Numbered from the stretch's first letter, positions 2,070 to 64,000 are shown. The stretch: DNA of 64,000 nucleotides from Kiritimatiellia bacterium (GCA_017454745.1 JAFTCL010000048.1:22534-86533); one strand, 5' to 3'. The notes: generated from the sequence alone by a model not told the origin. Made by a program: numbers and translations.

Positions 2070-2089
2070 AACGCTCTCCTAAATAATCC

Positions 2090-5151: not shown

Positions 5152-5199
5152 CGCGCGAATCTCGGGAACAACCTACGGAGAGCAAGAGAGGCGTTCATT

Positions 5200-5778
5200 A
5201 TGAACAACCGGAAACACGAAGGACATGCGGACGCGACGGAGCGCGTCCCACCCCGGGCGGATGTGGGAGGGTCGCGCTCCGTCGCGACCGCCACCACGCG
5301 CGTCCTGCCCGCACGCAAACACCCTTCGCGCAATTCAATCCTGACAACTTGCGACAACCGGGCTATCATTCTTTTCGTCACGGTGGTTACGTGCAATCGG
5401 CAGTGCGTGTTGGCCGATTGCAAGGTGCAATCGGTTATTCTGGACGTATGGAGAAGGACCAAGGGCTGGATCGTTGGGCGTTATGTGATCATGCCGGACC
5501 ATATCCACTTCTTCTGTGCGCCGACGTGCTATCCGCCGTCCGACTTCCATGCCTGGATGGCGTGCTGGAAACGCATGGTGTCGAACCGCTTTCCTTGCCG
5601 GCATTCGTTGCCGTTGTGGCAAAGGGATTGCTGGGATACGCAGTTGCGCCGCAGCGAGAGCTATGCCGACAAATGGGAGTATGTACGCAACAATCCCATA
5701 CGCAAGAGGTTGACAGAGGATGCGGATTCGTGGCCGTTTCAGGGAGAATTGAATGTTTTGCAGTGGCACGACAGATGA
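5200..5778 (+). mobile_element. REP-associated tyrosine transposase (RAYT), an IS200/IS605-family Y1 transposase. The true start is uncertain because the annotated N-terminus overlaps a REP hairpin.
   Basis: HuH motif VIMPDHIHFF, an N-terminal ILFVTVVTCNRQ (YFVT.CT.NR-like) block, and the catalytic-Tyr region SYADKWEYVRNNPIRKRL. Flanked by palindromic REP arms at 5226-5290 and 5797-5884. Confidence 0.75.
5226..5290. repeat. REP hairpin on the 5' side of the RAYT. Its two arms are GGACGCGACGGAGCGCGTCCC and GGGAGGGTCGCGCTCCGTCGCGACC.
   Basis: Imperfect inverted repeat read directly. The same arms recur on the 3' side. Confidence 0.7.
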
Positions 5779-5796
5779 TGTATGGGATGTGCGGAC

Positions 5797-5884
5797 GCGA
5801 CGGAGCGCGCGTTGGATGGGGGTGGACGCGACGGAGCGCGTCCCTCCCGAGACGTGTGTGGGAGGGTCGCGCTCCGTCGCGACC
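5797..5884. repeat. REP cluster on the 3' side of the RAYT: two GGACGCGACGGAGCGCG arms followed by one complementary arm, GGGAGGGTCGCGCTCCGTCGCGACC.
   Basis: Inverted and direct repeats matching the 5'-side element. This gives the REP-RAYT-REP arrangement of a REPtron. Confidence 0.7.
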
Positions 5885-5913
5885 TATGACAAATAGTAAA
5901 GGACATTAATGCG

Positions 5914-14966: not shown

Positions 14967-15169
14967 CCGCGCCCGGATTGACTATTGCCCCGGTTTTTGC
15001 TAAACTGTTTTTGATTTTCTTTGGCGGTGTATGCCCTTGAAAGAAAAGCGAGGACGGAATGACGGCGAGAGCAAGATATTTCGCATCAATTGCGGCGATG
15101 TAAAGGTGGCAAACGTGACCTTTGCGGGAGTCATTGTTTGTCGTTTCCATGCCTGAGGAAGGAGACTTT

Positions 15170-40770: not shown

Positions 40771-40862
40771 CCTAACTCTCCTTATTGTAGTTTTGCGCGT
40801 TGCGCCGGATCGTGTCCTAAACAAAAAAGGGGTCCCGCCGTTATTGGCGAGACCCTTCAAAC

Positions 40863-41042
40863 TCAATCGAACCGATTCAGATAACCGCTCGGAAGCGGCA
40901 TGGTTCCCTCCCATGCTGACGGGGCGGACCACGGCATATCCGTTTCCGCCGGGCGGCTGGCCATGCAACCTGCCGCCGCCAGCAACGCTGTACATGACAG
41001 CGCGGCGAGGGCGCGGGCGACGGTCTTAGAAGAAGACCACAT
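40863..41042 (-). CDS. Possible small lipoprotein (~59 aa)
   Basis: MWSSSKTVARALAALSCTALLAAAGC: a signal peptide plus a lipobox-like LAAAGC. Overlaps the 3' end of the neighbouring gene by ~17 nt. Weak evidence. Confidence 0.25.
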   Translation of the reverse strand: MWSSSKTVARALAALSCTALLAAAGCMASRPAETDMPWSAPSAWEGTMPLPSGYLNRFD

Positions 41043-50061: not shown

Positions 50062-50451
50062 TTAATCCATCGCGCCCGCCTTAGGATCGGGGCCGAAACG
50101 GTTAGCTCCGAGAGTGCCTTCGCGGATCAGTAGGAGGAGGCATAGCCAGATTGGTCCGATAATCGGAATCAGGAAAATAAAAAACCACCAACCACTTTTG
50201 TCGCAGTCATGCAACCGGCGTACTGTCACCGCGAGTCTAGGCAAAAGCACCGCCAACGAGTAGAATGTGGACAAAGATCCGATAGCGGTAGGAAGAATAG
50301 ATCCCCGCAAGCGGTGGGACACAAAACCGATAGCCACAATGATAATAAAATCAAACAGTGTGAAACCCCAATATTCTTTGCGGCGGGCCCGGCCGCTGAA
50401 ATCCAAATACTTTGTCGTGACTGCTTGTACAAAAAAATCAAACAGATTCAT
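50062..50451 (-). CDS. DUF805-family inner-membrane protein
   Basis: GRARRKEYWGFTLF...RRLHDCDKSGWW...G.NRFGPDP matches the DUF805 pattern. Confidence 0.6.
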   Translation of the reverse strand: MNLFDFFVQAVTTKYLDFSGRARRKEYWGFTLFDFIIIVAIGFVSHRLRGSILPTAIGSLSTFYSLAVLLPRLAVTVRRLHDCDKSGWWFFIFLIPIIGPIWLCLLLLIREGTLGANRFGPDPKAGAMD

Positions 50452-50597
50452 TTACGACCTCCTGGTTTCCCCCGTCATATCCCGGCGCGCCAAGCGCCAC
50501 AACCATCAAAACTGCGAATATGGTACAATTTACCGCGAAAACAAGCAAGGCGAAATTTTGAACAACGAATAAGGTCGAAATCGCCCCGAAGGCGGGG

Positions 50598-50626
50598 TTG
50601 ACAACATGTTACTCCTTTGCTAAAAT
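50598..50626 (+). promoter_or_regulatory. Putative sigma70 promoter: TTGACA, 17-nt spacer, TAAAAT
   Basis: Consensus -35 at the optimal spacing to a good -10. Lies in an AT-rich region ~120 nt upstream of the giant gene ATG. Confidence 0.5.
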
Positions 50627-50744
50627 TTTAACAGTTTTTTGTTAAGTGGTTTTGTGTCTTTTTGTGTTTATTCGTCGCAAATGAGAGTGCGCTGACGGTT
50701 AAACGATAAATGACAAAAAACATGGGAAGGGAAAAAGATGGGAG

Positions 50745-53700
50745 TTGTCTATGACTGACTTGAAATGTTTGAGCGGCGCGGTGGCGCTTTTCGCGCTTAC
50801 GCTTGGCGCGGTGGAACTTGAGACCGCCGGTGAGCTGCTGGTGGATCTCGACGCATCGACGCTGTCGGGATATTCGGAAGGTGACGGTGTTAGGGTGTGG
50901 CCCAATGCGGGCAGTCAGGCCGACTTCGTCTATGTTGACACCCACAGCAAGAATACTCCCCCGACCTACCGCCTCCGCAACGGTGCGCCGGCTCTGCGCT
51001 TCCTCGGCTCCGCATCGGGCAGCATGACGAACAACGTGCCCATGCCCGATTCGCTCACGGGCAACAGCGCCTGGACGGTTGAAGGATGGATCGCGCCCAC
51101 GCAAGAGAGAACGGATTTCCGCTACTTCCTGAGCATGCCGTATTATAAGGAAGGCACTTCCTCCACGCCCGAAGCCTACAAGCGCTGGGCGTTCCGCATG
51201 GACATGAAGACCGACCTCTATGCCGTGGAGCACAACTCATATCAGCTCTACTGGGGCCGTCGCAGTCCGGAGAATGCGATTTACCGCCCCGAGGTCGGGA
51301 AGTGGCACCACATCTGCGTTGTGCACGAGGCATCGGGCTACGAGCGCGTCTATGTGAACGGCCGTGTCGCCTCGGTGGGAAACACCGCGCTCAACCTCTC
51401 AAACGCGGATCCGAGCTTTTTCATCATCTCCGGCATCTACCGCCAGTCGACCGGCGCATGGGAGCGCCAGAACTATGCCGACTACGGACGCATCCGCATC
51501 CAGACCGGGGCGCTCATGACCGCGCAGGTGATCAGCAACTACAATGCCGAGAAGGAGCATTACGGCGTGACCGACGTGCCGGACACGCTCTGGACCGACG
51601 GCGCCACCTGGTACAACGGCAAGGCGCTCGCGCTTGACGACAATCTCATCATCGAGGGAGACCAGCCGCTTGTGATCGACAACGGCGCGAGCAACGCCGT
51701 GCACTTCATCACGGTGAACGCGGCGAAGAACACGGGGCTCACGATCGACAACGGCAGCATGCTCACGGTCGCCTACGGCAACGACCTTGTCCAGCTCGGC
51801 AACGTCGCCGGCGGCACGTTCTCGCTTCTGGTTCCGAACGGAACATTCGCCACCCCGAACAATTCGATCACGCTCGGCCTCTACAACAGCGGCGTGGGCG
51901 TGATTGGCGGCCGCGAGGACGCCTTGGGCATCGTCAACTGCGGCAGCTCCCTGCGCGTGGGGCACTATCCCGGCGGTTCGGGCGAATTCACCATCAAGAC
52001 GAACGGCATCGTGAACATTGCAAGCACCATCCGCATTGCCGACGGCAATGATGCCGAGGGTCATATAACGGTGGAGGAGGGCGGCGAGCTCACGGTTCTG
52101 GGCGACACGTACATCTGCTCCGGCACCGGGACGGGCGTTCTCGACGTGTACGGCACGTTCACCCACGGCACGGCCGACACCACGCCGACCTGCTACATTG
52201 CGGGCAGTGCGACCGGCGTCGGCACGCTTAACTTCCATCCCGGCTCCGTCGCCAACATCCAGATCTTCCGCAGCACCTCCGGCTCCACCACGAGCACGGT
52301 CAACATCGACGGCGCGACCTTGCGCACAATGCGCGGGCGCACATCGATCGTCGAGCCGCCCGTCATATTCAACATCAAGAACACGGTGACGTTCGACATC
52401 CCCGCGGGCATGAACGGCACGATCCGCACCACGGTCAACGACCTGACGGAGAACGGCGCGGCCACCATTGTCAAGACTGGCGGCGGCATTTTGTTCCTTA
52501 CGCCAAACGACGGTCAGACGCCAAGCGACATCTCCTCGACGTTCATCGTAAGGGAGGGCCAAGTCACGATCGGCAACGCAAACGCGCTCGCCGCCAGCTC
52601 CACGGCCACCTTCAAGCTCGAGGGCGGCACGGTGAGCGCCGACTACGTAGGCGGCGCGGCGGCGCTTCTCGCGCGCATCGACAAGTCGTCCGTGGGCAAC
52701 TTCATGCTCCACGGCAACAACGTGGCGGAGAATCTCGACTTCTCCGAGTATCCCGGTCTCACCATCATCCCCAATGGTACCTTCACGTACACGGGAACGA
52801 TAACGCCTTACCAGAACAAGTACATCTTCCGCCCCACTAATGGTCTCATGGTCTATGCCGGCAACATCTCCGACAAGGACGGGTTCCCCGCGTCAGTCGA
52901 AATCTACGGCGCGACAGATACGGACGGCGTGACGCTTTCCGGCCTTAACGACGGCATGAGCGGCAACATCAGCGTGTACAAGGGCATCCTCGGCATCTCC
53001 GGCTCGTCGTATGCGGCGGGTAACCCAGACTTGACGAAACTCTATTTCGCGGAAGGCACCTCCTTCAAGCTTGACGCGCTTGTGGGCTCGACCTTCTTCA
53101 CTTCGCGGATTGCCGAAGGCTCTAAGCCGGCGGCGATTCTGCTCACCGACAACTCCGCGAACTGCAGCGTCGATCTTTCCCGTTTCCCCGGCTGTCGCCT
53201 GGGTACCGACAAGACCGGTTCGGTCATGATTCAGACGGGCTCGATTTTCCCGAACGCCGACAATGTCTTCCTGCTTGGTGGCGGTGCCGTGCCGTATTAC
53301 CAGACGAGCCATCCGGGCTTCCAGCCCTCAGTTATGTCGGACAACTCCGCCGGCGCGGCTCGCGTTGAGGTGGGGACGGTCGGTATCGTCAACCTTTCGA
53401 ATGCGGCAAACACCTATTCCGGCGGCACGTCGATTCTCGACGGCGGCACCGTCTTCGTGACGGCGGACGGATTCGGCGCCATCCCGGCGGAATTCGATGA
53501 GGACAACATCTACATCAACGGCGGTATCCTCCGCAACGGCAACACCGTTTTCTCCCTTGCCCCGACGCGCGGCGTTAAAATCGGTCCGGACGGCGCGATA
53601 CTCCATCCTTGGGGTACCTACTCAATTGAAATCCCCGGCGGCTTGACCGGCGCCGGACCGGTCCAGATCACCGACGGCGGCTTTATCATTCTGTCGGGCG

Positions 53701-56000
53701 CCAACAACACCTTCCAGGGTCCGGTGACGGTAACCCAGGCCAATCAGGTGTTGACGATCGGCGGCGACGAGAACTTCTCGTGGGCTTCGACGGACGGCAT
53801 CTCCACTCCCGGCAAGGTGGTCCTCAAGAACTCGGATGACGATACGTTCAACGATGTCGTTTCCGGAACTGGCAGCCTAGAGAAGCAGGGTGAAGGGCGT
53901 ATGACGCTCACTAAATCCCAGTCCTATTCGGGCGCGACCTCCGTCGAAGCCGGAACGCTCGTTTTCGCTGACGGTGTTAATCTGGCTAATACTTCAACCT
54001 TCCGCAACAACGGGGAGGTCTTCCTCGATTCGTTCGACATACTGGGTACCGGAGCTATTTCCGGTTCCGGGCGTTTCGTTGTCTCCGGCACGACCGATCT
54101 CGACGCGGCCCGCCTTGTCGGAAATCCGGACTTTGAGATCTTGGACGGTGCCTCGCTGGGCATTGATATGCCGGCCTTCAGCGAGAAGACTGAAGTGCGT
54201 CTCGATGACGGATCGAGCGTGACGCTCGGTAGCGGCATTGTAAACCAGGTAAACGGATTCGACCAGTTCTTGTTCAACGGCAGCGCGGTGCTTTCCGAAG
54301 GCAATCTGAAGCTGACACCGTATGCGACAGCCAATGTTGGCTCGGCGTTCTATTCCCGGCGCGTGCGCGTGACAGATCCTTGGGAGGCGACCTTCTCCTA
54401 TCAGGCGGGAGAACATGACGCTTGGACGACGGATCTGCTCGGCGCCGCGCTCGTCCTACAGAACGAAGTGGCGGGACCAAACGCGATTGGCAACGCATCG
54501 TCGGGTTCGACTTTGGGGTGCGCCTTTACCAAGTCCATCGGTATCATCATGCGTGTCGGCGTCGAATCCGATACCCGTGACCGTTACGGCTTCAGCAATG
54601 CCGGCACGATCTCGGACACCACCTCTTCGCGCTCCAACGCTATCGCGGCCGATGGCGGCAACGTGATCAAGATTACCGTGAGCTATGACGGCGCGGTCCT
54701 TAGTGCGTCGTGGGATTGCAACGGTACCGTTCGCCCGACAAGTGGCCCGATGACATGGACGGTTGACCTAAAGTCGATTCTCGGCAGCGAATACGCGTGG
54801 ATCGGCTTCACGGGTACCACGGGCGCTTCGACCGGATGCGAGCAGACGATCAGCGGCTTCTCGTTCCGCAGCATCTCGGATGGCGCAAGCATTCCCGGCA
54901 TCGGCGAAACGGGCTGGACGCATACGAAATACGCGCCGACCTACACGACGGTCGACGACAAGCCGGCGTTCCAGTTAACGCCGTATGCGGAATCCACCCG
55001 GAGTGCGACTTGGAACTCGACGCGCGTATATGTGAACCGTCCTTTCCGTGCGACATTCAAGTATCGCGTGACCCAGCACACTGCCTCCCCGGCGGACGGC
55101 ATGGCGATTGTTCTCCAGAACTTCTCGTCCAACGCTGCGGACTGCTACGGTCAGACGGGTGGAAAACTCGGCATCGTCTATAACGATGGTTCCGATCGCA
55201 CGAAGACGGCGGGCTGGGGTATCAACCTCTACCCGAGCCAAAACGACCAGTGCTTCAAGTATGTGTTGGACGGCCTCTTCTCCGGCGATACCGTTCCCCT
55301 TACGGCATGGGATCTCGCTGACGGCGAAGATACCGAATTCACGCTGTCGTATGATTTGCGCGAGCTGACGCTGACGGCGACCCGTGGCAATTCCTACGTT
55401 TCCGCTTCGCGCGAAGTCAATTTGGCGTCGGTAATGGGTGACAACACGGCGTGGATCGGCTTCACGGGTGCTACGGGCGGATCGTATGCCTGCCAGATTG
55501 TGTACGATTTCTCGTTCGCCTACGAGGAGATGGATATCTCGCGTTATGCCAACCCGTTCGTGGTTGATGGTGCGGTACAGATGAATCTCGGCATGGGCAC
55601 GGTAGGTTTCTCCGATTTGATCCTGCAAGATGGCGCAAATCTCTCAATCGGTTCGGCGTCCGCCCCGGCGGTTGAACTGGCCGGTACGACGCTTTCGGGC
55701 GGAGCGACGGTCTCGTCGGTCGCCGCTGTGCCGATCATTCTCGGGGACACGATTTCGTTCGATTCTTCCACCGGCGTTCTCAAGCTGGTGGGCGATGTGC
55801 GCGCGAACGGCAAGGTGAAACTGGAACTCTCGTCCTTCAATGGTACGCGCAACCTCATCGATCTTACTGAGGCGACAACGTCGCTTACGGCAGACGATTT
55901 TGAGGTGACGGGTGAGGTTCCCCCGCTGTTGCATCTCGACATCAAGGACGGAATGGTCCGCATCTGGCGCGATGTTTCGACGATTATGATTCTCCGCTAA
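50745..56000 (+). CDS. Giant secreted lectin-like surface protein: N-terminal LamG-like domain, a long autotransporter-associated beta-strand (PATR) repeat region, and two L-type (legume-like) lectin domains
   Basis: Signal-like N-terminus. PATR units such as GTGSLEKQGEGRMTLTKSQSYSGATSVEAGTLVF. Two lectin domains marked by AWIGFTGTTG / AWIGFTGATG and ATFSYQ / ATFKYR. 1751 aa. Confidence 0.7.
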   Translation: MSMTDLKCLSGAVALFALTLGAVELETAGELLVDLDASTLSGYSEGDGVRVWPNAGSQADFVYVDTHSKNTPPTYRLRNGAPALRFLGSASGSMTNNVPMPDSLTGNSAWTVEGWIAPTQERTDFRYFLSMPYYKEGTSSTPEAYKRWAFRMDMKTDLYAVEHNSYQLYWGRRSPENAIYRPEVGKWHHICVVHEASGYERVYVNGRVASVGNTALNLSNADPSFFIISGIYRQSTGAWERQNYADYGRIRIQTGALMTAQVISNYNAEKEHYGVTDVPDTLWTDGATWYNGKALALDDNLIIEGDQPLVIDNGASNAVHFITVNAAKNTGLTIDNGSMLTVAYGNDLVQLGNVAGGTFSLLVPNGTFATPNNSITLGLYNSGVGVIGGREDALGIVNCGSSLRVGHYPGGSGEFTIKTNGIVNIASTIRIADGNDAEGHITVEEGGELTVLGDTYICSGTGTGVLDVYGTFTHGTADTTPTCYIAGSATGVGTLNFHPGSVANIQIFRSTSGSTTSTVNIDGATLRTMRGRTSIVEPPVIFNIKNTVTFDIPAGMNGTIRTTVNDLTENGAATIVKTGGGILFLTPNDGQTPSDISSTFIVREGQVTIGNANALAASSTATFKLEGGTVSADYVGGAAALLARIDKSSVGNFMLHGNNVAENLDFSEYPGLTIIPNGTFTYTGTITPYQNKYIFRPTNGLMVYAGNISDKDGFPASVEIYGATDTDGVTLSGLNDGMSGNISVYKGILGISGSSYAAGNPDLTKLYFAEGTSFKLDALVGSTFFTSRIAEGSKPAAILLTDNSANCSVDLSRFPGCRLGTDKTGSVMIQTGSIFPNADNVFLLGGGAVPYYQTSHPGFQPSVMSDNSAGAARVEVGTVGIVNLSNAANTYSGGTSILDGGTVFVTADGFGAIPAEFDEDNIYINGGILRNGNTVFSLAPTRGVKIGPDGAILHPWGTYSIEIPGGLTGAGPVQITDGGFIILSGANNTFQGPVTVTQANQVLTIGGDENFSWASTDGISTPGKVVLKNSDDDTFNDVVSGTGSLEKQGEGRMTLTKSQSYSGATSVEAGTLVFADGVNLANTSTFRNNGEVFLDSFDILGTGAISGSGRFVVSGTTDLDAARLVGNPDFEILDGASLGIDMPAFSEKTEVRLDDGSSVTLGSGIVNQVNGFDQFLFNGSAVLSEGNLKLTPYATANVGSAFYSRRVRVTDPWEATFSYQAGEHDAWTTDLLGAALVLQNEVAGPNAIGNASSGSTLGCAFTKSIGIIMRVGVESDTRDRYGFSNAGTISDTTSSRSNAIAADGGNVIKITVSYDGAVLSASWDCNGTVRPTSGPMTWTVDLKSILGSEYAWIGFTGTTGASTGCEQTISGFSFRSISDGASIPGIGETGWTHTKYAPTYTTVDDKPAFQLTPYAESTRSATWNSTRVYVNRPFRATFKYRVTQHTASPADGMAIVLQNFSSNAADCYGQTGGKLGIVYNDGSDRTKTAGWGINLYPSQNDQCFKYVLDGLFSGDTVPLTAWDLADGEDTEFTLSYDLRELTLTATRGNSYVSASREVNLASVMGDNTAWIGFTGATGGSYACQIVYDFSFAYEEMDISRYANPFVVDGAVQMNLGMGTVGFSDLILQDGANLSIGSASAPAVELAGTTLSGGATVSSVAAVPIILGDTISFDSSTGVLKLVGDVRANGKVKLELSSFNGTRNLIDLTEATTSLTADDFEVTGEVPPLLHLDIKDGMVRIWRDVSTIMILR

Positions 56001-56020
56001 AGAGTGGACGGCTTGCAAGT

Positions 56021-56047
56021 CGGGCGGGGCTTTTTTGGCCCCGCCCG
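56021..56047. terminator. Rho-independent terminator-like hairpin, GGGCGGGGC-TTTTTT-GGCCCCGCCC, just downstream of the giant gene
   Basis: Perfect 9-bp GC stem with a T-rich loop/tail, 21 nt after the stop codon. Confidence 0.55.
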
Positions 56048-56279
56048 TTTGTCTTAAGGATAACACTGACGCCGCGATCAGCATTTGTGATGGTACTGGA
56101 CCAGATGGAAAGTAGATACAATGGCGGAGATACATACGGCCGGCTTCGGCGATGTTTTGCTTCGCCCGCGCCTCCTATTATCGGGATTGGTGGGCTGTTG
56201 CCATTATCTGATCTGCTGGAACCGGTTTCCGTAGCAACCCGCCCCGTAAGGATTAAGCGTGGGAATGGGATCGCATAGG

Positions 56280-58715
56280 ATGAACAACGTTTATCTGGCC
56301 ATCTTGTTTTCAACCGTTGCGACGCTCCGGGTTACGTCGGCGGTGATGGTTGACGTATGGGGCGCCGAGGACGGGCTCCCCCATAACACGATCACCTGTC
56401 TGAAACAAACCCAAGACGGGTATCTATGGATCGGAACCAACCACGGCGCCGCCCGTTTTGACGGCATCCGCTTCACCCTCTTCGGCGCGCAGAACACGCC
56501 CGAATTGAGAAGCAACCGGATTGTCGCCTTTGAGGAGCTGGTTCAAGGCGGCAAGTCGGAGCTTTGGTTGGGTACGGACGGCGGCGGCGTCATGCGGCTC
56601 ATGGGCGGGCCGCACATGTCGATCACCAGTTGGGAGGGCCTTCCTGACGATACGATCGAATCGTTGGGGACGGACACCCAAGGACATCTGCTGATTGTCA
56701 CGGCAAAGGGATCCGTCATCTTGGATAACGGTCGGATCAGGCCCGTCACGGTGCCCCTCGGTCCGACAGACGCACAGACGGGAGACATCCCCCATGTGAC
56801 CGATCACCGGATACTCTGCACGCTGAAGGACACGGACGGGGTTTTATGGGTCGGGACCGAAGGCGGGGGATTGCTTCGGATTCGGCCTCGCCTGCTGGAT
56901 CCCGATTCCCGGCCGGACACAAAGGCGCTTCCGTCCTTTGATTTTCCCTCCGGTTTCCCTGAAAAGAGTGAAGTGACCGCATTCTGCCGCGATGCGGAAA
57001 ATAGGCTCTGGATCGGGACGCGCAACCGGGGCGTTTTCCTCCAAGAAGGGGGAACCATTCAAAACTTCGGGCCAAACGAGGGTTTCCCCGCGCGGATGGT
57101 TTCCGCGATCGTCCAGGATCGGGATGGCGATATTTGGGTAGGCTCCGACGGCATGGGACTCTATCAATTCGCGAACGGGCGGGTCTCCTATTATTGCCGC
57201 CGCGAGGGCTGGGGCAGCGAATGGATTCGTTCGCTCTTCATCGATTCCGACGGTGCGCTCTGGATCGGGAGCGGCGGGAATGGCCTGACGCGGATGCGGG
57301 ACGGCTGGTTCCACACCATCACCAAGCGGGAAGGGTTGAATGACGATATCGTCTCACAGATCCTGGAGGATGATTTCGGCAACATCTGGATCGGGACCAA
57401 TTCGGGATTGGCGGCCTTTTCGAAGCGGGATTTTGACCTGTTCGCGCAAGGAATGAAAAAGACGGTTCCGATAACCACGTATGGCCGCTGCGACGGCATG
57501 CCCGCCCTTGAATGCTGCGAAGACATAAAGATGCCGGCGGTCAAAGATCAAAACGGGCGGCTCTTCTTTGCGACCATTGCGGGGTATGTCTGTGTGGATC
57601 CCCATCAGCTGCGCGGGGCGATCAACAAAACCGCCTCGTTCAACACGATGATCGAAGAGGTCGAACTGGACGGGAAACGGATCCCCTCCCCGATTCGGGA
57701 CGTGGTCCTTGTGCCACCCGAAACGGGAGCGGTCTCCTTCCGATGGACGGGTTGCAATCCGGGGTATGCCGACAAGGTCCGTTTCCGGTACCGGCTGAAC
57801 GGATATGACCGCGAATGGATTGAGCAGAACACGCTGCGCTCCATACGGTATGTCAACCTCCCTCCCGGAAAATACACATTTGAAGTGGCGGCCTGTAATC
57901 CTGCGGGCATCTGGTGTCCGCGTCCCGCCATGATTCACCTGACGGTCAAGCCGCATCTTTGGCAGACGTTGGGATTCCGCATTGTTTTCCTCCTGTCGCT
58001 CGTTTCCGGCGGCGCGGCGTTGGCCTGGTGGTTTGTGCGGCGGCGGACGAAGGCCAAGATCGAACTCTTCAAACACCGCCATCTTCTGCTCGCCGAACGG
58101 GCCAGAATCGCCAGCGACATCCACGATGATATCGGGGCGCGTCTGACCCGGATCGCGCTTTTGGGTTCCCTTGCGGAGCGGGAACTGCCCGCCACCATTC
58201 CCGCTTCAACCAAGAATCGGCTCGCCGAGATGACCGTGGCCGTGCGGGAAGTGACCAACGCACTTGAAGAGGTGGTTTGGGCCGTTGAGCCGCGCAATGA
58301 CACCCTCGACAAGCTCGCGACCTATCTTTGCAGTTACTCGGAGCGTTTTTTAGAAGGAACCCACGTTCGTCTGCGGCTGCGGATCCCGACGCTCTTGCCC
58401 GCAGTCACGCTCTCCAGCTCATTGCGCCATGATGTGGTCCTGTCGGTCAATGAGGCGTTGAATAATGTGGTGCGGCACGCCAACGCCTCAACGATCATCC
58501 TCTATCTCACATGCGACGATCTCTTCTGCACCATCAAGGTGGAGGATGACGGATGCGGCATCACCGCAGTCCGTGAACATGGAAACGGGTTAAAGAACAT
58601 GGCTGAGAGGATGAGCCGGCAACATGGCTCAATTCGGTGTTCACAGCGGGAGGGACACGGTACCGTGATCGAGCTTTGTTTCCCCATCAAGCCGGGAGAT
58701 GGCAATGACAGATGA
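56280..58715 (+). CDS. Sensor histidine kinase with a periplasmic two-component-regulator beta-propeller, a Y_Y_Y domain, one transmembrane helix, and cytoplasmic HisKA_3 + HATPase_c domains
   Basis: Reg_prop repeats (DGYLWIGTNHG, GVLWVGTEGGGL, RLWIGTRNRGV, DIWVGSDGMGL, ALWIGSGGNGL, NIWIGTNSGL). Transmembrane segment IVFLLSLVSGGAALAWWFV. HisKA_3 box ERARIASDIHDDIGARLTRI. ATPase G-boxes. Confidence 0.8.
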   Translation: MNNVYLAILFSTVATLRVTSAVMVDVWGAEDGLPHNTITCLKQTQDGYLWIGTNHGAARFDGIRFTLFGAQNTPELRSNRIVAFEELVQGGKSELWLGTDGGGVMRLMGGPHMSITSWEGLPDDTIESLGTDTQGHLLIVTAKGSVILDNGRIRPVTVPLGPTDAQTGDIPHVTDHRILCTLKDTDGVLWVGTEGGGLLRIRPRLLDPDSRPDTKALPSFDFPSGFPEKSEVTAFCRDAENRLWIGTRNRGVFLQEGGTIQNFGPNEGFPARMVSAIVQDRDGDIWVGSDGMGLYQFANGRVSYYCRREGWGSEWIRSLFIDSDGALWIGSGGNGLTRMRDGWFHTITKREGLNDDIVSQILEDDFGNIWIGTNSGLAAFSKRDFDLFAQGMKKTVPITTYGRCDGMPALECCEDIKMPAVKDQNGRLFFATIAGYVCVDPHQLRGAINKTASFNTMIEEVELDGKRIPSPIRDVVLVPPETGAVSFRWTGCNPGYADKVRFRYRLNGYDREWIEQNTLRSIRYVNLPPGKYTFEVAACNPAGIWCPRPAMIHLTVKPHLWQTLGFRIVFLLSLVSGGAALAWWFVRRRTKAKIELFKHRHLLLAERARIASDIHDDIGARLTRIALLGSLAERELPATIPASTKNRLAEMTVAVREVTNALEEVVWAVEPRNDTLDKLATYLCSYSERFLEGTHVRLRLRIPTLLPAVTLSSSLRHDVVLSVNEALNNVVRHANASTIILYLTCDDLFCTIKVEDDGCGITAVREHGNGLKNMAERMSRQHGSIRCSQREGHGTVIELCFPIKPGDGNDR

Positions 58716-59349
58716 GGTGATTAAAGTCGCTTTGGTCGAGGACGATCTGGGTATCCGCGAGACCCTTGCGGAGCTGCTTGAGGTTTCGGAGGGATTTTCC
58801 TTTTGCGGTTCCTTCGCGGACGGCGAATCCGCTTTGGAGCAGATACCGAAACTGAACGCGGACATCGTGCTGGTGGATATCAACCTGCCGGGCATATCCG
58901 GCATCGATGTCATCATGACGCTTCATGCGGAGTGCCCGGGTCTCCAGTTCCTTGTCCTGACGGTCTATGAGGATAGCGACCGGATTTTCCGCGCCCTCGC
59001 CGCCGGGGCCGGCGGATACCTGCTCAAGCGCGAGGCGCCCAGTAAGTTGCTGGAATCGATCACGGACATCAAGCACGGCGGTGCGCCCATGTCGGCGTCG
59101 ATCGCGCGCCAGGTTGTCCAGTCGTTCCACAAGATGGGAACGGTCAAGGAGCCGTCGGAGAACCTCTCGTCGCGGGAAGAGGAGATTTTGAAGATGCTGG
59201 TGGAGGGGGACCTCTATAAGGAAATCGCGGACAAACTCGGCATCCATCTGGAAACGGTTAAAACGTACATCAAGCGGATCTATGCGAAACTGCATGTCCG
59301 TTCGCGGACCGAGGCGGTCGTGAAACGGTTGCGGCGGGAAAACGATTGA
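58699..59349 (+). CDS. Response regulator of the NarL/FixJ family (REC + LuxR-type HTH)
   Basis: Receiver residues VEDD and VLVDINLPG. C-terminal HTH: LSSREEEILKMLVEGDLYKEIADKLGIHLETVKTYIKRIY. Overlaps the kinase gene by ~17 nt. Confidence 0.8.
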   Translation: MAMTDEVIKVALVEDDLGIRETLAELLEVSEGFSFCGSFADGESALEQIPKLNADIVLVDINLPGISGIDVIMTLHAECPGLQFLVLTVYEDSDRIFRALAAGAGGYLLKREAPSKLLESITDIKHGGAPMSASIARQVVQSFHKMGTVKEPSENLSSREEEILKMLVEGDLYKEIADKLGIHLETVKTYIKRIYAKLHVRSRTEAVVKRLRREND

Positions 59350-59371
59350 TGGCGGAAAGGATTCTCAAAAG

Positions 59372-60322
59372 GTGAAGGCTGTTGTTTACGGATGTCTGAC
59401 GGTGCTCGCGATTCTCCTTTCGGGTTGTCGGGAGAACACGCCGGTCGAGCCGGTTAACGGGATTGTGGCGGTTTCGCTGGTGACGGACACGAATCCCCAT
59501 TTTTTGAAGATCGCCGAGGCGATCGAGCGCGATGCGCGGCGATACGGTTACCAGGTCGAAGTCGATTCCTGCGAGTTTAATGTGGACCGGCAGATCGAGC
59601 AAGTGAGACGGTTCATCACCTTGGGCGTGAAGGCGATGGTCCTGACGCCCTGCGACGCCAAGAAGATCGCGCCCGCCGTCCGGGCGGCCAATGAGGCGGG
59701 GATACCTGTCTTCACGGCCGACACGGCCTGTTCCGCGGAGGGTGTGCATATTACCGCGCATGTCGCGACGGACAATCGCGGCGGCGGGACACAGATCGCC
59801 CACGCGACGATCGAGACGTTGGGGGAGAAAGGCGGAACGGTCGGCTTGATCAACCATTCCCCGCTTGAGGCGTGCGAGCAACGGGTCAAGAGTTTCCTCG
59901 AAGTGCTGGCGCGCCACAACGAGTCCCACACCAACGCGCAGATCAAGGTGCTCTTCTGCGAACCCTGTGGCGCGAACCGGAAAGGGGGCGCGGCGGCCGC
60001 CGAAAAGATCATCCGAAAGCCCGTCCTTCCCGACGTCATCTTCGCCGTCAACGATCCCTCCGCCGCAGGGGCGTACTCGGTCCTGAAGAAACTCCCCCAA
60101 GAGAAGTGCCCCAAGATCATCGCCTTTGACGGTTCCAAAGAGGGTTGCCGGGCCGTGGACGAGGGCCATTTCCTGGCGACGGCCATCCAGTATCCGGAAC
60201 GCATCGGCGCTGAGGTCATGCGGGCGATCGTGATGAATGCCCGCAATGACCCGATTCCCGCCGAAATCCTCATTCCGACCTCGCTCTACCAGCCCTCCCG
60301 GAAGCGGATCGGCGAACCGTAA
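59372..60322 (+). CDS. Lipoprotein sugar-binding protein of the periplasmic-binding-protein (LacI/RbsB-like) fold. It has no adjacent ABC permease or ATPase genes.
   Basis: Lipobox LAILLSGC. PBP type-I pattern (VDSCEFNVDRQIEQVRRFITLGVKAMVL, IIAFDGSKEG). Confidence 0.65.
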   Translation: MKAVVYGCLTVLAILLSGCRENTPVEPVNGIVAVSLVTDTNPHFLKIAEAIERDARRYGYQVEVDSCEFNVDRQIEQVRRFITLGVKAMVLTPCDAKKIAPAVRAANEAGIPVFTADTACSAEGVHITAHVATDNRGGGTQIAHATIETLGEKGGTVGLINHSPLEACEQRVKSFLEVLARHNESHTNAQIKVLFCEPCGANRKGGAAAAEKIIRKPVLPDVIFAVNDPSAAGAYSVLKKLPQEKCPKIIAFDGSKEGCRAVDEGHFLATAIQYPERIGAEVMRAIVMNARNDPIPAEILIPTSLYQPSRKRIGEP

Positions 60323-60333
60323 CGCCCGGACGG

Positions 60334-62712
60334 CTAGAACGGATTGGTCGGGGCGATCTCCCACATGTCGAGCCGCGCGCAGACGGCGGACTCGCCCTTC
60401 GCCCCCAAGCGGATGTTCCGACCCTCTTTCCGCGGGTAACTGCGGCGGCAGATCGCCTGCCGGTCATTGGCGAACACCTCAATAACACTACGGTCCACAT
60501 AGACGCGCAGGGTCAGGGTCTCGCCCGGCCGCAGCCGGAACGGCGCCCGCTCGACAAGGGCGTGGGGCGTGATCATCCCGGATGACGCGGTCCCGCCCTG
60601 GCTTCCATCCAGAACAAGATGCCCCGTCTCCGCGTCGTAATGGATGACCGTCTTTTCGCTGCCGTCATCCGAGGCCAGAACCGACAGGACGAAACGGGGG
60701 GCGTTCTCCGGATCGAACGTCAGCTGGATCTCGCAATCATCCCCGGGAAGACCGGCAAACGGCTGACCCGTCTCTTCCGCAAGCCGGAGGCTCTCCACGG
60801 CCTTGTGGTTCCGGCGCAACCGTTTCAACTCCTCGACGGGGGCGATGCCGAGCGTCCCGTCATCCGCCAGCCAAAGCGATCGCGGCAGGCCGTAGACACC
60901 CGACCACCCGTATGTGATGTGGTCATTCTCAAGATTGTCGATCAGCCAGGCCCAAATGATCTGGCGGCCCTGTCCGTCCATCAGGCACTCCGGCGCGAAG
61001 TAGGTGTTGTCCTCCCACGTCATTCTGCCGTGACTTTCGGGATAGAAGCGGTCATCCGCATACCGCCCGATATAGTATTGGCAGCCCCGGTTGTGGCTGA
61101 TGCTGACCAGCAGGTGTTTGTCGCTTAAGGCGCCGCCGTCGGCACTGCGCGGCAACGGCAGGAAACTCGGACACATGTTGTCCTCATCGGGATCGGTCCA
61201 GCCGGACGCGCGCGTCTCATCGGTTCTGCGCTGGTAGAAGGGATGCTTGTAAACCCAGCTCTTCAGGTCCGCCGACTCGAAGAGGTAGACGCAGTCGCCC
61301 TTCATCGCCTCGGGCGAATCCGCCGCCCGTCCGTTGTCATTCAGCAAGGGTAGGTTTCCGGCGACCATGTAATACTTGCCGTTCTTTTTCCAGATGTTCG
61401 ACGGGTCCGCGCTGGCGTACTTCACCTCGTTCCCATCCGCGTCCTTCGCCAGGGTCCATCCCCACCGTGTGCTTTTGATGACGGGGTTTTCCGCGAATTT
61501 CTCCCAGCGGTCAAAGCGGGAATCAAGACTCTTGGCGATGCCGAGCCCCTTCGCGCCCCAGAGCATCCAGTAGGTGAGATAGGCGGTGCCGTCATCATCA
61601 ACAAAACCGCCGCCGCTGAAGACCCCGCTGTCATTCGGCCCGACACGAAGCGCGTCGGGATGGTGCCGCCAATGGAGCAGGTCCGCGCTGGAGACATGTC
61701 CCCAGCAGAAGCCGGAATGGGCGCGCGCGTAAAGATACATCAGATGATACCGCCCGTTGTGCCAGAAGCAGCCGTTGGGGTCACCCGGCTTCCCGTTCCC
61801 CTCTGGAACGCAGAAGTGGTAGAGCGGCCGGTAGGGATCCGCCAACAGCTTTTCACGCAGCCGGCGGGTGGTCGCCAGCACGGTATCGGGCACATCCCCC
61901 CGTCCGTTCCACGGTGACGCCGGAACCGTCGTCGCCCCGCCCTCTTCCTCGATGGACAGCGTCGAATCGGCAAGGGAGACCAGAAAGGTGTCGCCCTCGT
62001 CCATCAGGGTCAAAGCGCCGTCGGCCACCTTGGCGTTGCCGATCAGACGGCTCGCGCGGAAACGGCCCATCCGCTCAAATGTGCCCGTCGTACAGAACGG
62101 CCACCAGGCCCAAAGCGGCAACTCCCCCGCGACACCGGGCTTGAGTTTGCGCAGGGCGGCGCCGTCGAGCGCCGAGTCGTAAATCCGCGCGTCGCTAATC
62201 CGCCCTTTAAAGCTGACGCCGTCTTTCGCCCCGCGATGCCGTTTACCGAAGAGCACAAGGGTCTCGTTTCCGAAACGGACGGGATCAACCGTTGCGGTGT
62301 ACCGAGTCAGCTGTTCGCCATTGCGGTAGATGGTAATCTCACGGCCTTTATAACTGATCGCTAATTGGATGAACCGGTCAGCGGCGACGCTCTCTTCTGG
62401 GGCCCCATCCTGTTCGCGGCGGGTCCGTTTGTAATAATCGCTTCCCGCCATCCAAACCTTTTCTTTGAGTTCGCCCAAAACGATCGCGTCAAAGACCCCC
62501 TTGGCCGATTCCATGGTCAGGCAGGAGCCGCCCTGTTGCGTCAAATCCGCGGGGGAGACCCACGCCACAAGCGTCTTATCCACGATACTCTCGTTTTCGC
62601 TTGGAATCGGCTTTTGCCCGCCGTTTAACGTCACCGTGGTTTGGGCGACCGCTTGTCCCGCGCAACAGGCGCACCCGATAAGAACCATGTATCCCGCTCG
62701 AAACGTCATCAT
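60334..62712 (-). CDS. Secreted GH32 beta-fructofuranosidase / levanase-like hydrolase with an N-terminal LamG-like domain
   Basis: Signal peptide. A LamG-like ~200-aa N-terminal domain. The GH32 motifs are GDPNGCFWHNGRYHLMYLY (the NDPNG equivalent), WGHVSSADLLHW, FSGG, and YFAPEC (the EC catalytic motif). Confidence 0.75.
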   Translation of the reverse strand: MMTFRAGYMVLIGCACCAGQAVAQTTVTLNGGQKPIPSENESIVDKTLVAWVSPADLTQQGGSCLTMESAKGVFDAIVLGELKEKVWMAGSDYYKRTRREQDGAPEESVAADRFIQLAISYKGREITIYRNGEQLTRYTATVDPVRFGNETLVLFGKRHRGAKDGVSFKGRISDARIYDSALDGAALRKLKPGVAGELPLWAWWPFCTTGTFERMGRFRASRLIGNAKVADGALTLMDEGDTFLVSLADSTLSIEEEGGATTVPASPWNGRGDVPDTVLATTRRLREKLLADPYRPLYHFCVPEGNGKPGDPNGCFWHNGRYHLMYLYARAHSGFCWGHVSSADLLHWRHHPDALRVGPNDSGVFSGGGFVDDDGTAYLTYWMLWGAKGLGIAKSLDSRFDRWEKFAENPVIKSTRWGWTLAKDADGNEVKYASADPSNIWKKNGKYYMVAGNLPLLNDNGRAADSPEAMKGDCVYLFESADLKSWVYKHPFYQRRTDETRASGWTDPDEDNMCPSFLPLPRSADGGALSDKHLLVSISHNRGCQYYIGRYADDRFYPESHGRMTWEDNTYFAPECLMDGQGRQIIWAWLIDNLENDHITYGWSGVYGLPRSLWLADDGTLGIAPVEELKRLRRNHKAVESLRLAEETGQPFAGLPGDDCEIQLTFDPENAPRFVLSVLASDDGSEKTVIHYDAETGHLVLDGSQGGTASSGMITPHALVERAPFRLRPGETLTLRVYVDRSVIEVFANDRQAICRRSYPRKEGRNIRLGAKGESAVCARLDMWEIAPTNPF

Positions 62713-62725
62713 CTTTCCCCCACGA

Positions 62726-64000
62726 TCAGAATTTGATATCCTCCAGCACCTTCCCCTTTGTTTCGGGAACCAGCGTGAGGATCCAGACGAGATGGATCAC
62801 CATCATCACCAGAAAGAACGCGAAAATGGCACTCTGCGAAAAACTTTCCGCCAGTTTCGGGAAGGTGAACGCGATCAGCGCGGCGAAGATCCAGTGGGTG
62901 GAACTGCCGAGCGATTGGCCCGCCCCCCGGAAACGGTTGGGAAAGATCTCGGAGATCAGGACCCAGATGACCGTTCCCTGCCCCAGTCCGTGCGCCGCGA
63001 CGAACGCGAAGAGGAACCAGGGGATCAGGCTGCCGTGGCCCGTCGAGAAGCCCCACACGCAGAGGGCGAGCGAGACCACATAGCCGATCCCGCCGATCAG
63101 CAGCAGGGTTTTCCGTCCCAGCACGTCGATCAGCGCCACGCCGATCCACGTCCCGATGAACATCACGATGCCGATGCCGGCGGATTGGAAGAGCGCGTCA
63201 TGCGTGGCGAATCCCGCCTCCCCGAAGATTCGGGGGGCGAAGTAAAGGACCGCGTTGATCCCCGACATCTGGTTAAAGAACGCGACAAAGAACGCCAGAA
63301 GGATCGGTTTGACGAGCGCCTTGGAGAAGAACCGCTCGCGCTGACCGGCGGAAGCCGTCTCCTTTGCCGCGCACTCGGCGCGCACGCCATCCACCATCGC
63401 GTCAATATCCCGGGCGTCGAGCGCGGGATTGATCTCGGCAAAGACCTTGCGGCCCCCTTCGCTGTCCCTGCGCTTGACGATCAGCCAGCGGGGGCTTTCG
63501 ACCAGGAAGGGACAGAGTACGGTAAAGAGAAACGCCGGAATCGCCTCGCTGCCCAGCATGAAGCGCCAGGAGTTGTCGCCGATACGCGCCATGAAGTAGT
63601 TCGAAATGTAGGCTACGCACATACCGAAGATGACATTGAACTGGAAAAGTCCCGTCAGGGTTCCCCGGTATTTCGGAGGCGCGATCTCCGAGTTGTACAG
63701 CGGGACCACCACGGACGAGATGCCCACCCCGAATCCGCCGATCAGCCGGGCGACGGTCATAGTGTACGGTCCGGCCGGAAAGGCGGACCAAACTGCGGAG
63801 ACGAAAAACATCACCCCTGACCAGAAGAGGATTTTACGTCTGCCGAAAAAGTCGCTCAACCATCCTCCGATCAACGCGCCGATGACCGTCCCCCAAAGCG
63901 CGGAACTCATCACCAGCCCGTGCGTCCAACTGTCGGTTTGCCAAAGCGCCTGCATGGGCTTGTCCGCCCCGCTGATGACTGCCGTGTCATACCCGAAAAG
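62726..64000 (-). CDS. MFS sugar porter (sugar:H+ symporter), N-terminus beyond the window
   Basis: The ORF stays open upstream of the M at 63955 (LFGYDTAVISGADKP...). Sugar-porter motifs PESPRW and GRRKILFWSG are present. Confidence 0.75.
   Translation of the reverse strand, partial: LFGYDTAVISGADKPMQALWQTDSWTHGLVMSSALWGTVIGALIGGWLSDFFGRRKILFWSGVMFFVSAVWSAFPAGPYTMTVARLIGGFGVGISSVVVPLYNSEIAPPKYRGTLTGLFQFNVIFGMCVAYISNYFMARIGDNSWRFMLGSEAIPAFLFTVLCPFLVESPRWLIVKRRDSEGGRKVFAEINPALDARDIDAMVDGVRAECAAKETASAGQRERFFSKALVKPILLAFFVAFFNQMSGINAVLYFAPRIFGEAGFATHDALFQSAGIGIVMFIGTWIGVALIDVLGRKTLLLIGGIGYVVSLALCVWGFSTGHGSLIPWFLFAFVAAHGLGQGTVIWVLISEIFPNRFRGAGQSLGSSTHWIFAALIAFTFPKLAESFSQSAIFAFFLVMMVIHLVWILTLVPETKGKVLEDIKF

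Follow-up and report, generated by a model that had tools for sequence, protein, structure and literature searches.

A putative fructan utilisation locus of a Kiritimatiellia bacterium with a sugar-binding lipoprotein beside a propeller-type two-component system

Gene content of the locus

An initial annotation had placed five co-located genes at the end of the window, i.e. the whole 64,000-nt stretch of Kiritimatiellia bacterium DNA analysed here (JAFTCL010000048.1:22534-86533), and all five ORFs were recovered there with the domains it had named. Three were located on the plus strand and encoded a sensor histidine kinase (56280..58715), a NarL/FixJ-type response regulator with REC and GerE HTH domains (58699..59349) and, 22 nt downstream of the regulator gene, an RbsB-type (CUT2, Peripla_BP_4) solute-binding lipoprotein (SBP; 59372..60322). 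On the minus strand, a gene encoding a secreted LamG (Laminin_G_3)-GH32 enzyme (60334..62712) was convergent with the SBP gene, the two stop codons being 11 nt apart, and was preceded, 13 nt upstream, by a gene for an MFS sugar-porter-family H+ symporter (XylE/GlcP-like; 62726..64000 and on past the window end). The combination of a GH32 enzyme and a sugar porter under a two-component system supports the reading of the locus as a fructan/fructose-type utilisation island.

The LamG-GH32 enzyme and MFS porter annotated on this strand were thus both found, in a transcription unit longer than had been described. Over 13,667 nt, near-identical contigs differed from the window by a single mismatch, and they supplied a further 8.7 kb, in which a gene for a 967-aa LamG protein, just past the window end, headed the unit (LamG-MFS-GH32). 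The MFS reading frame was open to base 64000, with the first 21 of its 445 codons (63 nt) past the window end, and a complete copy of the gene was present on L133 (8647-9984). Even with its N-terminus missing, the windowed part scored 317.8 bits against TIGR00879 (cut-off 237.8), which places it in the sugar-porter family.

Upstream of the kinase, a plus-strand gene (50745..56000) encoded a giant secreted protein of 1751 aa with LamG, legume-lectin and PATR-repeat domains (Pfam). It ended at a strong intrinsic terminator (56021..56047, plus strand; 11-bp stem with 10 G-C pairs, followed by a T-run), and the kinase gene therefore starts a transcription unit of its own. As LamG or LamG-PATR giants recur beside the same gene set in relatives, with LamG/PATR genes sitting between the regulator and MFS genes in L094, L002 and L003, the 1751-aa protein may serve the fructan locus as an accessory surface protein that binds glycans.

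The GH32 protein possessed a signal peptide, and its family assignment held on alignment: Pfam detected Laminin_G_3 (1.4e-13), Glyco_hydro_32N (PF00251; 1.1e-35) and Glyco_hydro_32C (PF08244; 2.1e-25), corresponding to the five-bladed propeller and C-terminal beta-sandwich of the family, and full-length alignments to the structures 6num, 7vco and 3pig gave E-values of 1e-35 to 1e-32. The nucleophile Asp was kept, PGDPNG aligning with NDPNG, and PGD(P/S)NG was present in 115 of 120 GH32 homologues. In the RDP block, the site of the transition-state-stabilising Asp in GH32 enzymes, the Asp was kept and the Arg replaced (S-A-D-P), as in 85/120 homologues (87/120 with T-A-D-P included), W-D-P being found in a sister group. 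The acid/base region read E-D-N-M-C-P, with Met before the Cys at the place that the general acid/base Glu takes in the canonical E-C motif; a conserved E-D 3-4 residues upstream of the Cys occurred in all 120 homologues and E-C in none (0/120). The enzyme is thus one member of a large subfamily with E-D-x-x-C in place of E-C. Its sequence points to a probable beta-fructofuranosidase or fructanase in which the catalytic motifs (PGDPNG, SADP, EDNMC) depart from the canonical ones.

A two-component system with a reduced propeller sensor

The kinase (811 aa from ATG 56280, the start also called on a near-identical contig; 818 aa from an alternative GTG at 56259) contained the propeller, Y_Y_Y and HisKA_3 domains previously assigned to it (Pfam: Reg_prop, 1.3e-36; Y_Y_Y, 4.4e-16; HisKA_3, 1.1e-08; HATPase_c, 2.3e-09). 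Two hydrophobic segments were present (residues 11-31 and 570-593), and its architecture ran from an N-terminal TM/signal anchor through the Reg_prop propeller region and a Y_Y_Y Ig-like domain to the second TM segment, HisKA_3 and HATPase_c. The H, N, G1 and G2 boxes were complete, with the H-box ERARIASDIHD at 613.

The periplasmic domain was homologous to those of hybrid two-component systems (HTCSs), with phmmer E-values of 1e-48 and 2e-43 to 3v9f and 4a2l, and the AF2 model (pLDDT 87) had the HTCS periplasmic domains of BT4663, BT3049 and BT4673 as its best Foldseek matches. The propeller region was, however, reduced to about 9 blades in the AF2 model compared to the 14 of the two seven-bladed propellers in HTCSs, with an internal deletion of ~125 aa relative to the nearest homologues, which themselves head loci rich in GH32 genes; the deletion was larger still in the sister kinase of L095. 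Such a loss fits a shift of ligand recognition from the kinase to the SBP.

The regulator (Pfam: Response_reg, 1.2e-23; GerE, 3.6e-17; NarL as best NCBIfam match) possessed the acidic pair (EDD14), the phospho-acceptor Asp in IVLVDINLP, T88 and K110. It is 216 aa long from its first ATG (58699) or 214 aa from the ATG at 58705, so that the 17-nt overlap with the kinase gene noted initially holds from the first ATG and shrinks to 11 nt from the start chosen by the gene caller. Complete HisKA_3 boxes, the receiver Asp/Thr/Lys residues and the GerE HTH, encoded by adjacent genes, define a NarL/FixJ-class two-component system.

A true HTCS was considered for the kinase and rejected: the protein ends after HATPase_c, its transmitter is of the HisKA_3 type and its REC+GerE regulator is separate, and it is therefore a classical two-component kinase with an HTCS-like sensor. 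The likeness to HTCSs put forward initially was borne out for the periplasmic domain, in a reduced form. The 'split' design is not unusual, as the database contains at least 7,888 kinases with the Reg_prop/Y_Y_Y/HisKA_3/HATPase_c architecture, for which annotation is routine; a detached NarL-type regulator beside a propeller kinase is an ordinary arrangement.

A sugar-binding protein clade without ABC partners

The SBP (Peripla_BP_4, 4.1e-36; lipobox LLSG|C19) had ribose-binding proteins as its best PDB matches (5e-27), followed at a distance by signalling-type proteins, i.e. the sensor domain of BT1754 (2e-12), XylFII (1e-8) and ChvE (2e-6). The RbsB-type pocket residues N41, F44, D117, R171, N227, D228, D253 and Q273 were invariant across its clade, and clade-specific changes were located in or near the pocket (F to H43, Q to S255). 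It follows that selection for sugar binding persists in this protein.

Fold, export signal and sugar pocket were thus those of a CUT2 binding protein, whereas the adjacent BPD_transp_2 permease and ABC ATPase genes of such systems were absent within ~68 kb. No ORF with a Walker A or LSGGQ motif was detected in the whole 64-kb window, including 59 kb upstream, and no ABC genes were found in the 91%-identical locus of Verrucomicrobia bacterium UBA1211 (L008). The initial annotation had called the lipoprotein an orphan, with the proviso that permease and ATPase genes might lie just beyond the window; none were present in the 8.7 kb past its end, and the description stands.

Phylogenetically, the SBP belonged to a clade of 14 sequences (45-93% identical; lipobox in 13/14; bootstrap 172/200, 86%) nested in a mostly ABC-linked family. 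ABC genes were found near none of the 14 clade members compared to 73/109 sequences outside the clade (p = 1e-6), while an MFS porter was near 13/14 inside and 0/109 outside (p = 1e-16), standing in for the ABC genes in every informative lineage of the clade. On these counts, the ABC-less state is clade-wide and old. A propeller kinase was near the SBP in 6/14 clade members (2/109 outside), and a kinase or regulator in 7/14 (4/109 outside; p = 1e-5).

Several gene orders occurred: HK-RR-SBP in the window, L008 and L001, SBP-HK-RR in L009, MFS-HK-..-SBP in L095 and RR-LamG-MFS-SBP in L094, with a degraded kinase gene upstream in L002. In at least one lineage (L090/L011), no kinase was found from 10 kb upstream of the SBP to 6 kb downstream. 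The MFS gene lay immediately upstream of the SBP gene on the same strand, with a 4-nt spacing, in L003, L004, L092 and L094, whereas in the subclade of the window the SBP gene has moved into the operon of kinase and regulator and lies on the other strand from the porter. The arrangement of a three-component system, an SBP beside a kinase and regulator without a transporter of its own, was present in the window and kept in the same order in L001 and L008. The SBP-kinase pairing is thus conserved in part of the clade, recurring in several orders without being universal, since the tightest partner of the SBP is the MFS porter.

Outside the clade, sister lineages possessed canonical SBP-ABC-GH32 operons (L010, L012, L014 and L027). 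One of these (L014), an independent SBP lineage, had the order HK-SBP-ABC-GH32 and is a possible dual-role intermediate. In another independent lineage (L032), a hybrid propeller kinase gene overlapped the SBP gene, with only housekeeping genes in the flanks.

Possible role of the binding protein and comparison with known systems

The best reading of these data, to which we assign a probability of about 0.5, is that the SBP acts as a co-sensor for the kinase. The secreted LamG-GH32 enzyme, probably aided by the giant LamG/lectin surface proteins, would free fructose or short fructo-oligosaccharides, which the MFS porter would import, while the classical two-component system, with its shortened HTCS-like propeller/Y_Y_Y sensor, HisKA_3 kinase and NarL-type regulator, would control expression. 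Descended from ribose/fructose-type ABC binding proteins, the SBP would most likely provide the sensor with its ligand-binding subunit: in the periplasm it would bind the freed, presumably fructose-like sugar, dock on the periplasmic domain of the kinase and switch the kinase on. The resulting three-component system would feed back positively on the operon of hydrolase and porter, taken here as its likely regulon.

The co-sensor idea, already raised in the initial annotation, thus gained comparative support from the ABC-less clade, the intact pocket, the recurrent kinase adjacency and the precedents described below, although the SBP is found with the MFS porter more often than with the kinase, and the SBP-kinase contact is one that we infer. 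The closer sequence match to transport RbsB than to signalling SBPs argues against co-sensing, as does the lack of a nearby kinase in the L090/L011 lineage, and by analogy with HTCSs the propeller/Y_Y_Y domain could sense oligosaccharides unaided.

Both the RbsB likeness and the propeller domain would suit a plain transport role, in which the SBP serves a CUT2 permease and ATPase encoded elsewhere in the genome and is merely a member of the regulon, the kinase sensing fructo-oligosaccharides directly. Ribose-binding transport proteins are its best matches, the sister lineages have SBP-ABC-GH32 operons, and HTCS-type propellers, among which BT4663 structures are the top fold matches, bind oligosaccharides directly. 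We consider this unlikely in view of the old, clade-wide replacement of ABC genes by an MFS porter, their absence from the ~68 kb around the SBP and the internal deletion of the kinase propeller in the lineage of the window.

More doubtful still is a service to the MFS porter itself, in which the SBP would capture fructose with high affinity in the periplasm and pass it on or retain it, the two-component system controlling expression only. The porter is the most constant neighbour of the SBP, the 4-nt same-strand spacing suggests co-translation, and clade-specific substitutions in the pocket and on the surface accompany the exchange of ABC genes for an MFS porter. Yet a sensor subunit co-transcribed with its own regulon explains this adjacency equally well, the SBP gene of the window's subclade has left the porter's strand for the kinase-regulator operon, and the porter, at 445 aa, has the usual length and no extra domain. 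To our knowledge, SBPs are used among secondary transporters by the TRAP and TTT families only, and by none in the sugar-porter family. Finally, the loss of its transporter genes and the double use of enterobacterial RbsB-type proteins as chemotaxis ligand carriers (PMC8050422) might suggest a decaying remnant or an unrelated role such as chemotaxis, which is very improbable given the intact frame, the conserved lipobox and pocket at 45-93% identity, the stable synteny with fructan genes and the lack of chemotaxis genes in the SBP neighbourhood.

For the co-sensor reading, one precedent is BT1754 of Bacteroides thetaiotaomicron (PDB 2x7x), which senses monomeric fructose via a binding-protein-type periplasmic domain and induces a fructan PUL (PMC3404733). 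It likewise controls a GH32 fructan locus, with a fold of the superfamily of the SBP. In BT1754, however, this fold is joined to the kinase in place of a propeller, and a single chain carries kinase, receiver and AraC HTH, with uptake by SusC/D. The window has a separate binding lipoprotein, a kinase that still possesses a shortened propeller/Y_Y_Y domain and has a HisKA_3 transmitter, a detached NarL-type regulator and, for uptake, an MFS porter. In the Gram-positive Streptococcus mutans, the four-component LevQRST system combines SBP-like proteins with a kinase and regulator, and thereby induces a fructanase together with a permease that is not of the ABC type (PMC3043104). The likeness drawn here is one of components: LevQRST has two SBP-like proteins and a PTS permease where the window has an MFS porter, and both the sensor domain of its kinase and the family of its regulator differ.

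Kinase-stimulating SBPs are typically encoded beside signalling genes (PMC8050422), and CuaD, an SBP devoted to signalling, binds its own kinase (PMC10384115). XylFII-LytS, CuaD-CuaS, LuxP-LuxQ, TorT-TorS and ChvE-VirA all place a dedicated or dual-use SBP beside a kinase and regulator as the ligand-binding subunit (PMC8050422; PMC10384115); XylFII and LuxP share the Peripla_BP_4 family with the SBP, which the XylFII structures 5xsj/5xss match at ~1e-8. The kinases of such systems carry 4-helix-bundle, dCache or sCache sensors, unlike the propeller/Y_Y_Y kinase here, and the transporter under control in the window would be an MFS porter; no propeller-type receptor is described among them ('propeller' is absent from the review PMC8050422), so that the docking step would be without structural precedent. 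From the HTCSs BT4663, BT3049 and BT4673, which share the Reg_prop/Y_Y_Y fold and the control of glycan-degradation loci, the kinase differs in its blade number (~9 not 14), in HisKA_3 in place of HisKA, in having no fused receiver/AraC and in its separate SBP. RbsB and other CUT2 proteins (PDB 2ioy, 2gx6) are closest to this SBP by sequence and share its fold and pocket residues, whereas it has no neighbouring cognate permease/ATPase genes, carries His43 at the F15-equivalent position among other clade-specific changes and lies in an MFS/GH32/kinase locus. As the probable sugar detector of the sensor, the SBP would follow an established principle through parts that are newly combined.

Gene content and boundaries of the fructan locus

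The ORF listing and the Pfam/NCBIfam scans bore out the initial annotation, which had described a five-gene fructan/sucrose locus: all five genes were present with the stated domains, the locus is real and its description was accurate. On the forward strand, a sensor kinase gene (56259/56280-58715; Reg_prop, Y_Y_Y, HisKA_3 and HATPase_c) was followed by that of a NarL-type regulator (58699/58705-59349; REC and GerE), the two overlapping by 17 nt if the first ATG is taken as the start or by 11 nt with the ATG of the gene callers, and by the gene of an RbsB-type sugar-binding protein (SBP; 59372-60322; Peripla_BP_4) with an LLSG/C lipobox. The reverse strand encoded a GH32 enzyme (60334-62712; Laminin_G_3, GH32N and GH32C) and an MFS sugar porter (from 62726), whose frame was still open at base 64000. 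In the kinase, two hydrophobic segments flanked a periplasmic domain of ~540 aa, and the H, N, G1 and G2 boxes were all complete; the regulator possessed the acidic pair, the phospho-Asp, the Thr and the Lys. The convergent SBP and GH32 genes had stop codons only 11 nt apart (60322-60334), with no terminator-like hairpin between them in the scan. The two opposing transcripts may overlap.

Three contigs reached via the GH32 gene (L133-L135) matched positions 50334-64000 with a single mismatch in 13,667 nt. Base 64000 corresponded to position 8710 of L133, so that the DNA past the window end was represented by L133 1-8709. It contained the porter's initial 21 codons and, on the same strand, the gene of a secreted 967-aa Laminin_G_3 protein (L133 5726-8629), giving the operon order LamG-MFS-GH32. 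Divergent genes beyond encoded a 612-aa protein without Pfam match, two DUF6905 proteins, an FGGY sugar kinase and a Zn-dependent dehydrogenase. Upstream, a strong terminator (56021-56047) divided the kinase unit from a giant gene. A block beginning shortly before the kinase gene and reaching through the porter gene was common to the window, a UBA1211 contig (L008; 87-91% nucleotide identity) and a further related locus (L001; 75%). In L008, the kinase gene was separated from the end of the LamG giant by ~5 kb of extra genes, one of them for a SIS-domain protein (1400-6526, vs 56000-56205 in the window), indicating that the conserved block begins only just upstream of the kinase.

The giant upstream gene (50745-56000, +) encoded a secreted Laminin_G_3 protein (1751 aa) that also carried legume-lectin and PATR repeats, and a second giant of 1574 aa with an InlB B-repeat was encoded at 19297-24021 (+). 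LamG or LamG-PATR giants recurred within related fructan loci (L002, L003, L094 and L008), where they may bind glycans at the surface. Candidates for phosphorylating imported fructose were a hexokinase (26536-27840, +; Pfam Hexokinase_1/2), a 483-aa ROK-family protein (39544-40995, -) and the FGGY carbohydrate kinase just beyond the window (L134 955-2481), all of them outside the conserved block. A PD-(D/E)XK family transposase gene (15122-16285, +; PDDEXK_2, 1.9e-43) was located among housekeeping and glycan genes.

No shared operator motif could be called in the three promoter regions (kinase, LamG-MFS-GH32 operon and 1751-aa gene) and their orthologous regions in L008 and L001, which were too few and too diverged. 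A near-palindrome, GGAACCGGTTTCC, was located at 56218-56230 (+), ~30-60 nt upstream of the candidate kinase starts (GTG 56259 and ATG 56280), and the matching position in L008 held a perfect palindrome, GAAACCGGTTTC. Three one-mismatch copies were found elsewhere in the window (8680, 40326 and 41914; 0.18 expected by chance). The palindrome may be an operator, or a coincidence.

A clade of sugar-binding proteins without ABC partners

The SBP was of RbsB/CUT2 type by sequence, with ribose-binding proteins as best PDB matches (5e-27) and further matches to the BT1754 sensor domain (2e-12), XylFII (~1e-8) and ChvE (2e-6). The possibility that it was closest to the fructose-sensing domain of BT1754 was rejected, transport RbsB proteins being much closer. 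Homologues at 42-50% identity were plentiful in Verrucomicrobiota, Planctomycetota, Acidobacteriota and Armatimonadota.

The claim that the SBP has no ABC partners held in the 64-kb window and the adjoining 8.7 kb. A six-frame motif scan of the whole window yielded no ORF with Walker A or LSGGQ, and ABC ATPase or permease genes were not detectable in L133 1-8709 by motifs or by phmmer with reference proteins. The 91%-identical locus L008 ("Verrucomicrobia bacterium UBA1211") gave the same picture, with ABC genes likewise not detected. The SBP might be used by a distant ABC transporter elsewhere in the genome. Its lipoprotein anchor is no argument against an inner-membrane partner, because such anchoring is common to the whole SBP family.

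To place the SBP, 130 related loci were annotated uniformly by phmmer, with the window proteins and reference ABC ATPase and permease proteins from L005 as queries, and an NJ tree was built from 123 SBPs. The window SBP fell within a clade of 14 (window, L001, L008, L095, L089, L003, L004, L092, L094, L088, L002, L009, L011 and L090) with a bootstrap of 172/200, the window subclade and its sister subclade reaching 200/200 and 195/200, respectively. ABC genes were present within 3 kb of none of the 14 clade SBPs, compared to 73 of 109 outside the clade (p = 1e-6), MFS sugar porter genes within 5 kb of 13/14 compared to 0/109 (p = 1e-16), propeller kinase genes within 6 kb of 6/14 compared to 2/109, and a kinase or regulator gene near 7/14 compared to 4/109 (p = 1e-5), the clade counts including near-duplicate members and representing about nine independent lineages. 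By lineage, a kinase or regulator was present in five of the ~6 whose contigs extended far enough and the MFS in all eight that were informative for it, and ABC genes were present in none.

The near-perfect co-occurrence of SBP and MFS genes, as well as their 4-nt spacing, would be compatible with the SBP acting in the periplasm as the capture subunit of its neighbouring porter, that is, with an SBP-dependent secondary transporter that arose when an MFS protein replaced the ABC permease and ATPase and the binding protein was kept; such an SBP could serve both porter and kinase. To our knowledge, however, SBP-assisted transport is without precedent in the sugar-porter family, and this explanation is considered improbable. 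Decay of the SBP, or a role in chemotaxis, is unlikely given the sequence conservation and the gene context. The lipobox was present in 13 of the 14 clade members and the RbsB-type pocket residues N41, F44, D117, R171, N227, D228, D253 and Q273 were invariant, a pattern pointing to a clade that is not decaying; clade-specific substitutions comprised F to H43, Q to S255, D to T270, H144 and V237.

Gene orders around the clade SBPs varied. The commonest in the sister subclade was [HK-RR]-LamG/PATR-MFS-SBP-(LamG)GH32, where HK and RR denote kinase and regulator; the L094 contig began at the regulator and that of L003 within the LamG genes. Other orders were SBP-HK-RR (L009), MFS-HK-..-SBP (L095) and MFS-GH32-GH31-SBP, with no kinase within reach (L090 and L011). 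In L002 (2358-5800), which belongs with the sister subclade, what persisted was a 599-aa sensor part of the kinase and, of the regulator, no more than 35 aa of GerE; between them lay a 204-aa ORF and the gene for an AbiEii toxin, and the two-component system looks to have been destroyed by a mobile toxin-antitoxin insertion. Outside the clade, L010, L012 and L027 were SBP-ABC-GH32 operons, and a Verrucomicrobiota MAG (L014 3-7405) possessed the order HK(HisKA_3)-SBP-ABC ATPase-ABC permease-LamG-GH32, possibly an evolutionary intermediate with an SBP that could function in transport as well as in signalling. The evolutionary series SBP-ABC-GH32, HK-SBP-ABC-GH32, HK-RR-...-MFS-SBP-GH32 could be used to study the recruitment of transport proteins into signalling. 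In a Candidatus Methylomirabilota MAG (L032 5646-10987), an RbsB-type SBP gene was overlapped at its start by the gene of a 1452-aa hybrid kinase (Reg_prop, Y_Y_Y, two to three PAS, HisKA, HATPase_c and REC). Only housekeeping genes (queuosine synthesis, MraW and PBP2) flanked the two, with no transporter nearby, and together they represent an independent propeller-kinase/SBP module.

Kinase sensor and GH32 catalytic blocks

The "split HTCS" emphasized in the initial annotation proved not to be new in itself, because at least 7,888 proteins shared the Reg_prop/Y_Y_Y/HisKA_3/HATPase_c architecture at E<=1e-20; databases routinely name such kinases [quoted passage not shown]. Relative to the nearest homologues (P0123-P0134 and the kinase of L009), ~125 residues were missing in mid-propeller from the window kinase and from its relatives at the 90% and 73% level, the deletion site lying at ~56740-56800 (kinase residues ~165-175), and the L095 kinase (671 aa) had a larger deletion overlapping this one. 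Residues 28-575 were modelled with AlphaFold2 (pLDDT 87, pTM 0.78) as about nine blades of four strands each, with the Y_Y_Y domain after them, and the sole low-confidence stretch of the model (model residues 141-146) fell at the deletion junction. The best structural matches of the model were the sensor domains of BT4663, BT3049 and BT4673. The nearest non-trivial kinase homologues (37-44% identity) also headed GH32-rich loci.

The GH32 assignment was upheld at the family level by Pfam and PDB alignments, so its failure was rejected at that level, although the catalytic motifs were non-canonical. The window enzyme possessed E-D-N-M-C in place of the canonical acid/base E-C and S-A-D-P in place of R-D-P, and kept the nucleophile Asp. 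E-D-x-x-C was present, and E-C absent, in every one of the 120 homologues retrieved at 56-100% identity from Planctomycetota, Verrucomicrobiota and other groups; NCBI calls these proteins only "GH32 C-terminal domain-containing protein". The blocks of this large subfamily, PGD(P/S)NG, (S/T)ADP or WDP for RDP, and E-D-x-x-C for E-C, were found in the window, L001, L003, L008, L010, L012, L014 and L089, and canonical GH32s occurred in other related loci (L052, L027 and L101). The acid/base residue may be displaced by 3-4 positions, and the subfamily is a separate enzymology target.

Proposed functioning and comparison with known systems

Most likely, the secreted GH32, perhaps with the help of the LamG/lectin surface giants, would free fructose or short oligosaccharides, the MFS porter would import the sugar, the kinase and regulator would control the operons, and the SBP would act as the ligand-binding subunit of the sensor. 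The first three steps correspond to established family functions, and the fourth is based on comparative genomics, with ligand and contacts inferred. A role as sensor subunit is suggested because the SBP outlived the ABC transporter, kept its pocket and remained in the fructan locus, and because it is found repeatedly beside a propeller kinase whose own ligand-binding module shrank. The sensor architecture is ordinary, and what is new is a variant of the known SBP-as-co-sensor theme, namely a clade of transporter-less SBPs that keep an intact pocket and are linked to the genes of MFS porters, GH32 enzymes and propeller kinases. This variant is well suited to experiment and offers a testable model for the regulation of glycan use without SusC/D-type PULs in the abundant, little-studied Verrucomicrobiota and Planctomycetota of soil and freshwater.

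Literature searches yielded no specific account of GH32 loci equipped with sensors of this kind in Verrucomicrobia or Planctomycetes, nor of Reg_prop/HisKA_3 kinases. As a general rule, the genes of SBPs that stimulate kinases lie beside signalling genes, and the receptor domains covered in the review of SBP-stimulated kinases are only of the 4-helix-bundle and Cache types, the word "propeller" being absent (PMC8050422); signalling of the SBP via the propeller kinase would add a new receptor class (Reg_prop/Y_Y_Y) to this short list. The SBP-to-kinase logic proposed here is that of the published CuaDSR system (PMC10384115). It is also shared by LevQRST, in which a fructanase and a PTS permease are induced by SBP-like proteins together with a histidine kinase and response regulator (PMC3043104), and by BT1754, which senses fructose through a fused binding-protein domain (PMC3404733). 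If the proposed role is true, three unrelated lineages (Bacteroides with BT1754, streptococci with LevQRST and the PVC group with the present system) would have independently come to turn on fructan degradation when a binding-protein fold detects free fructose.
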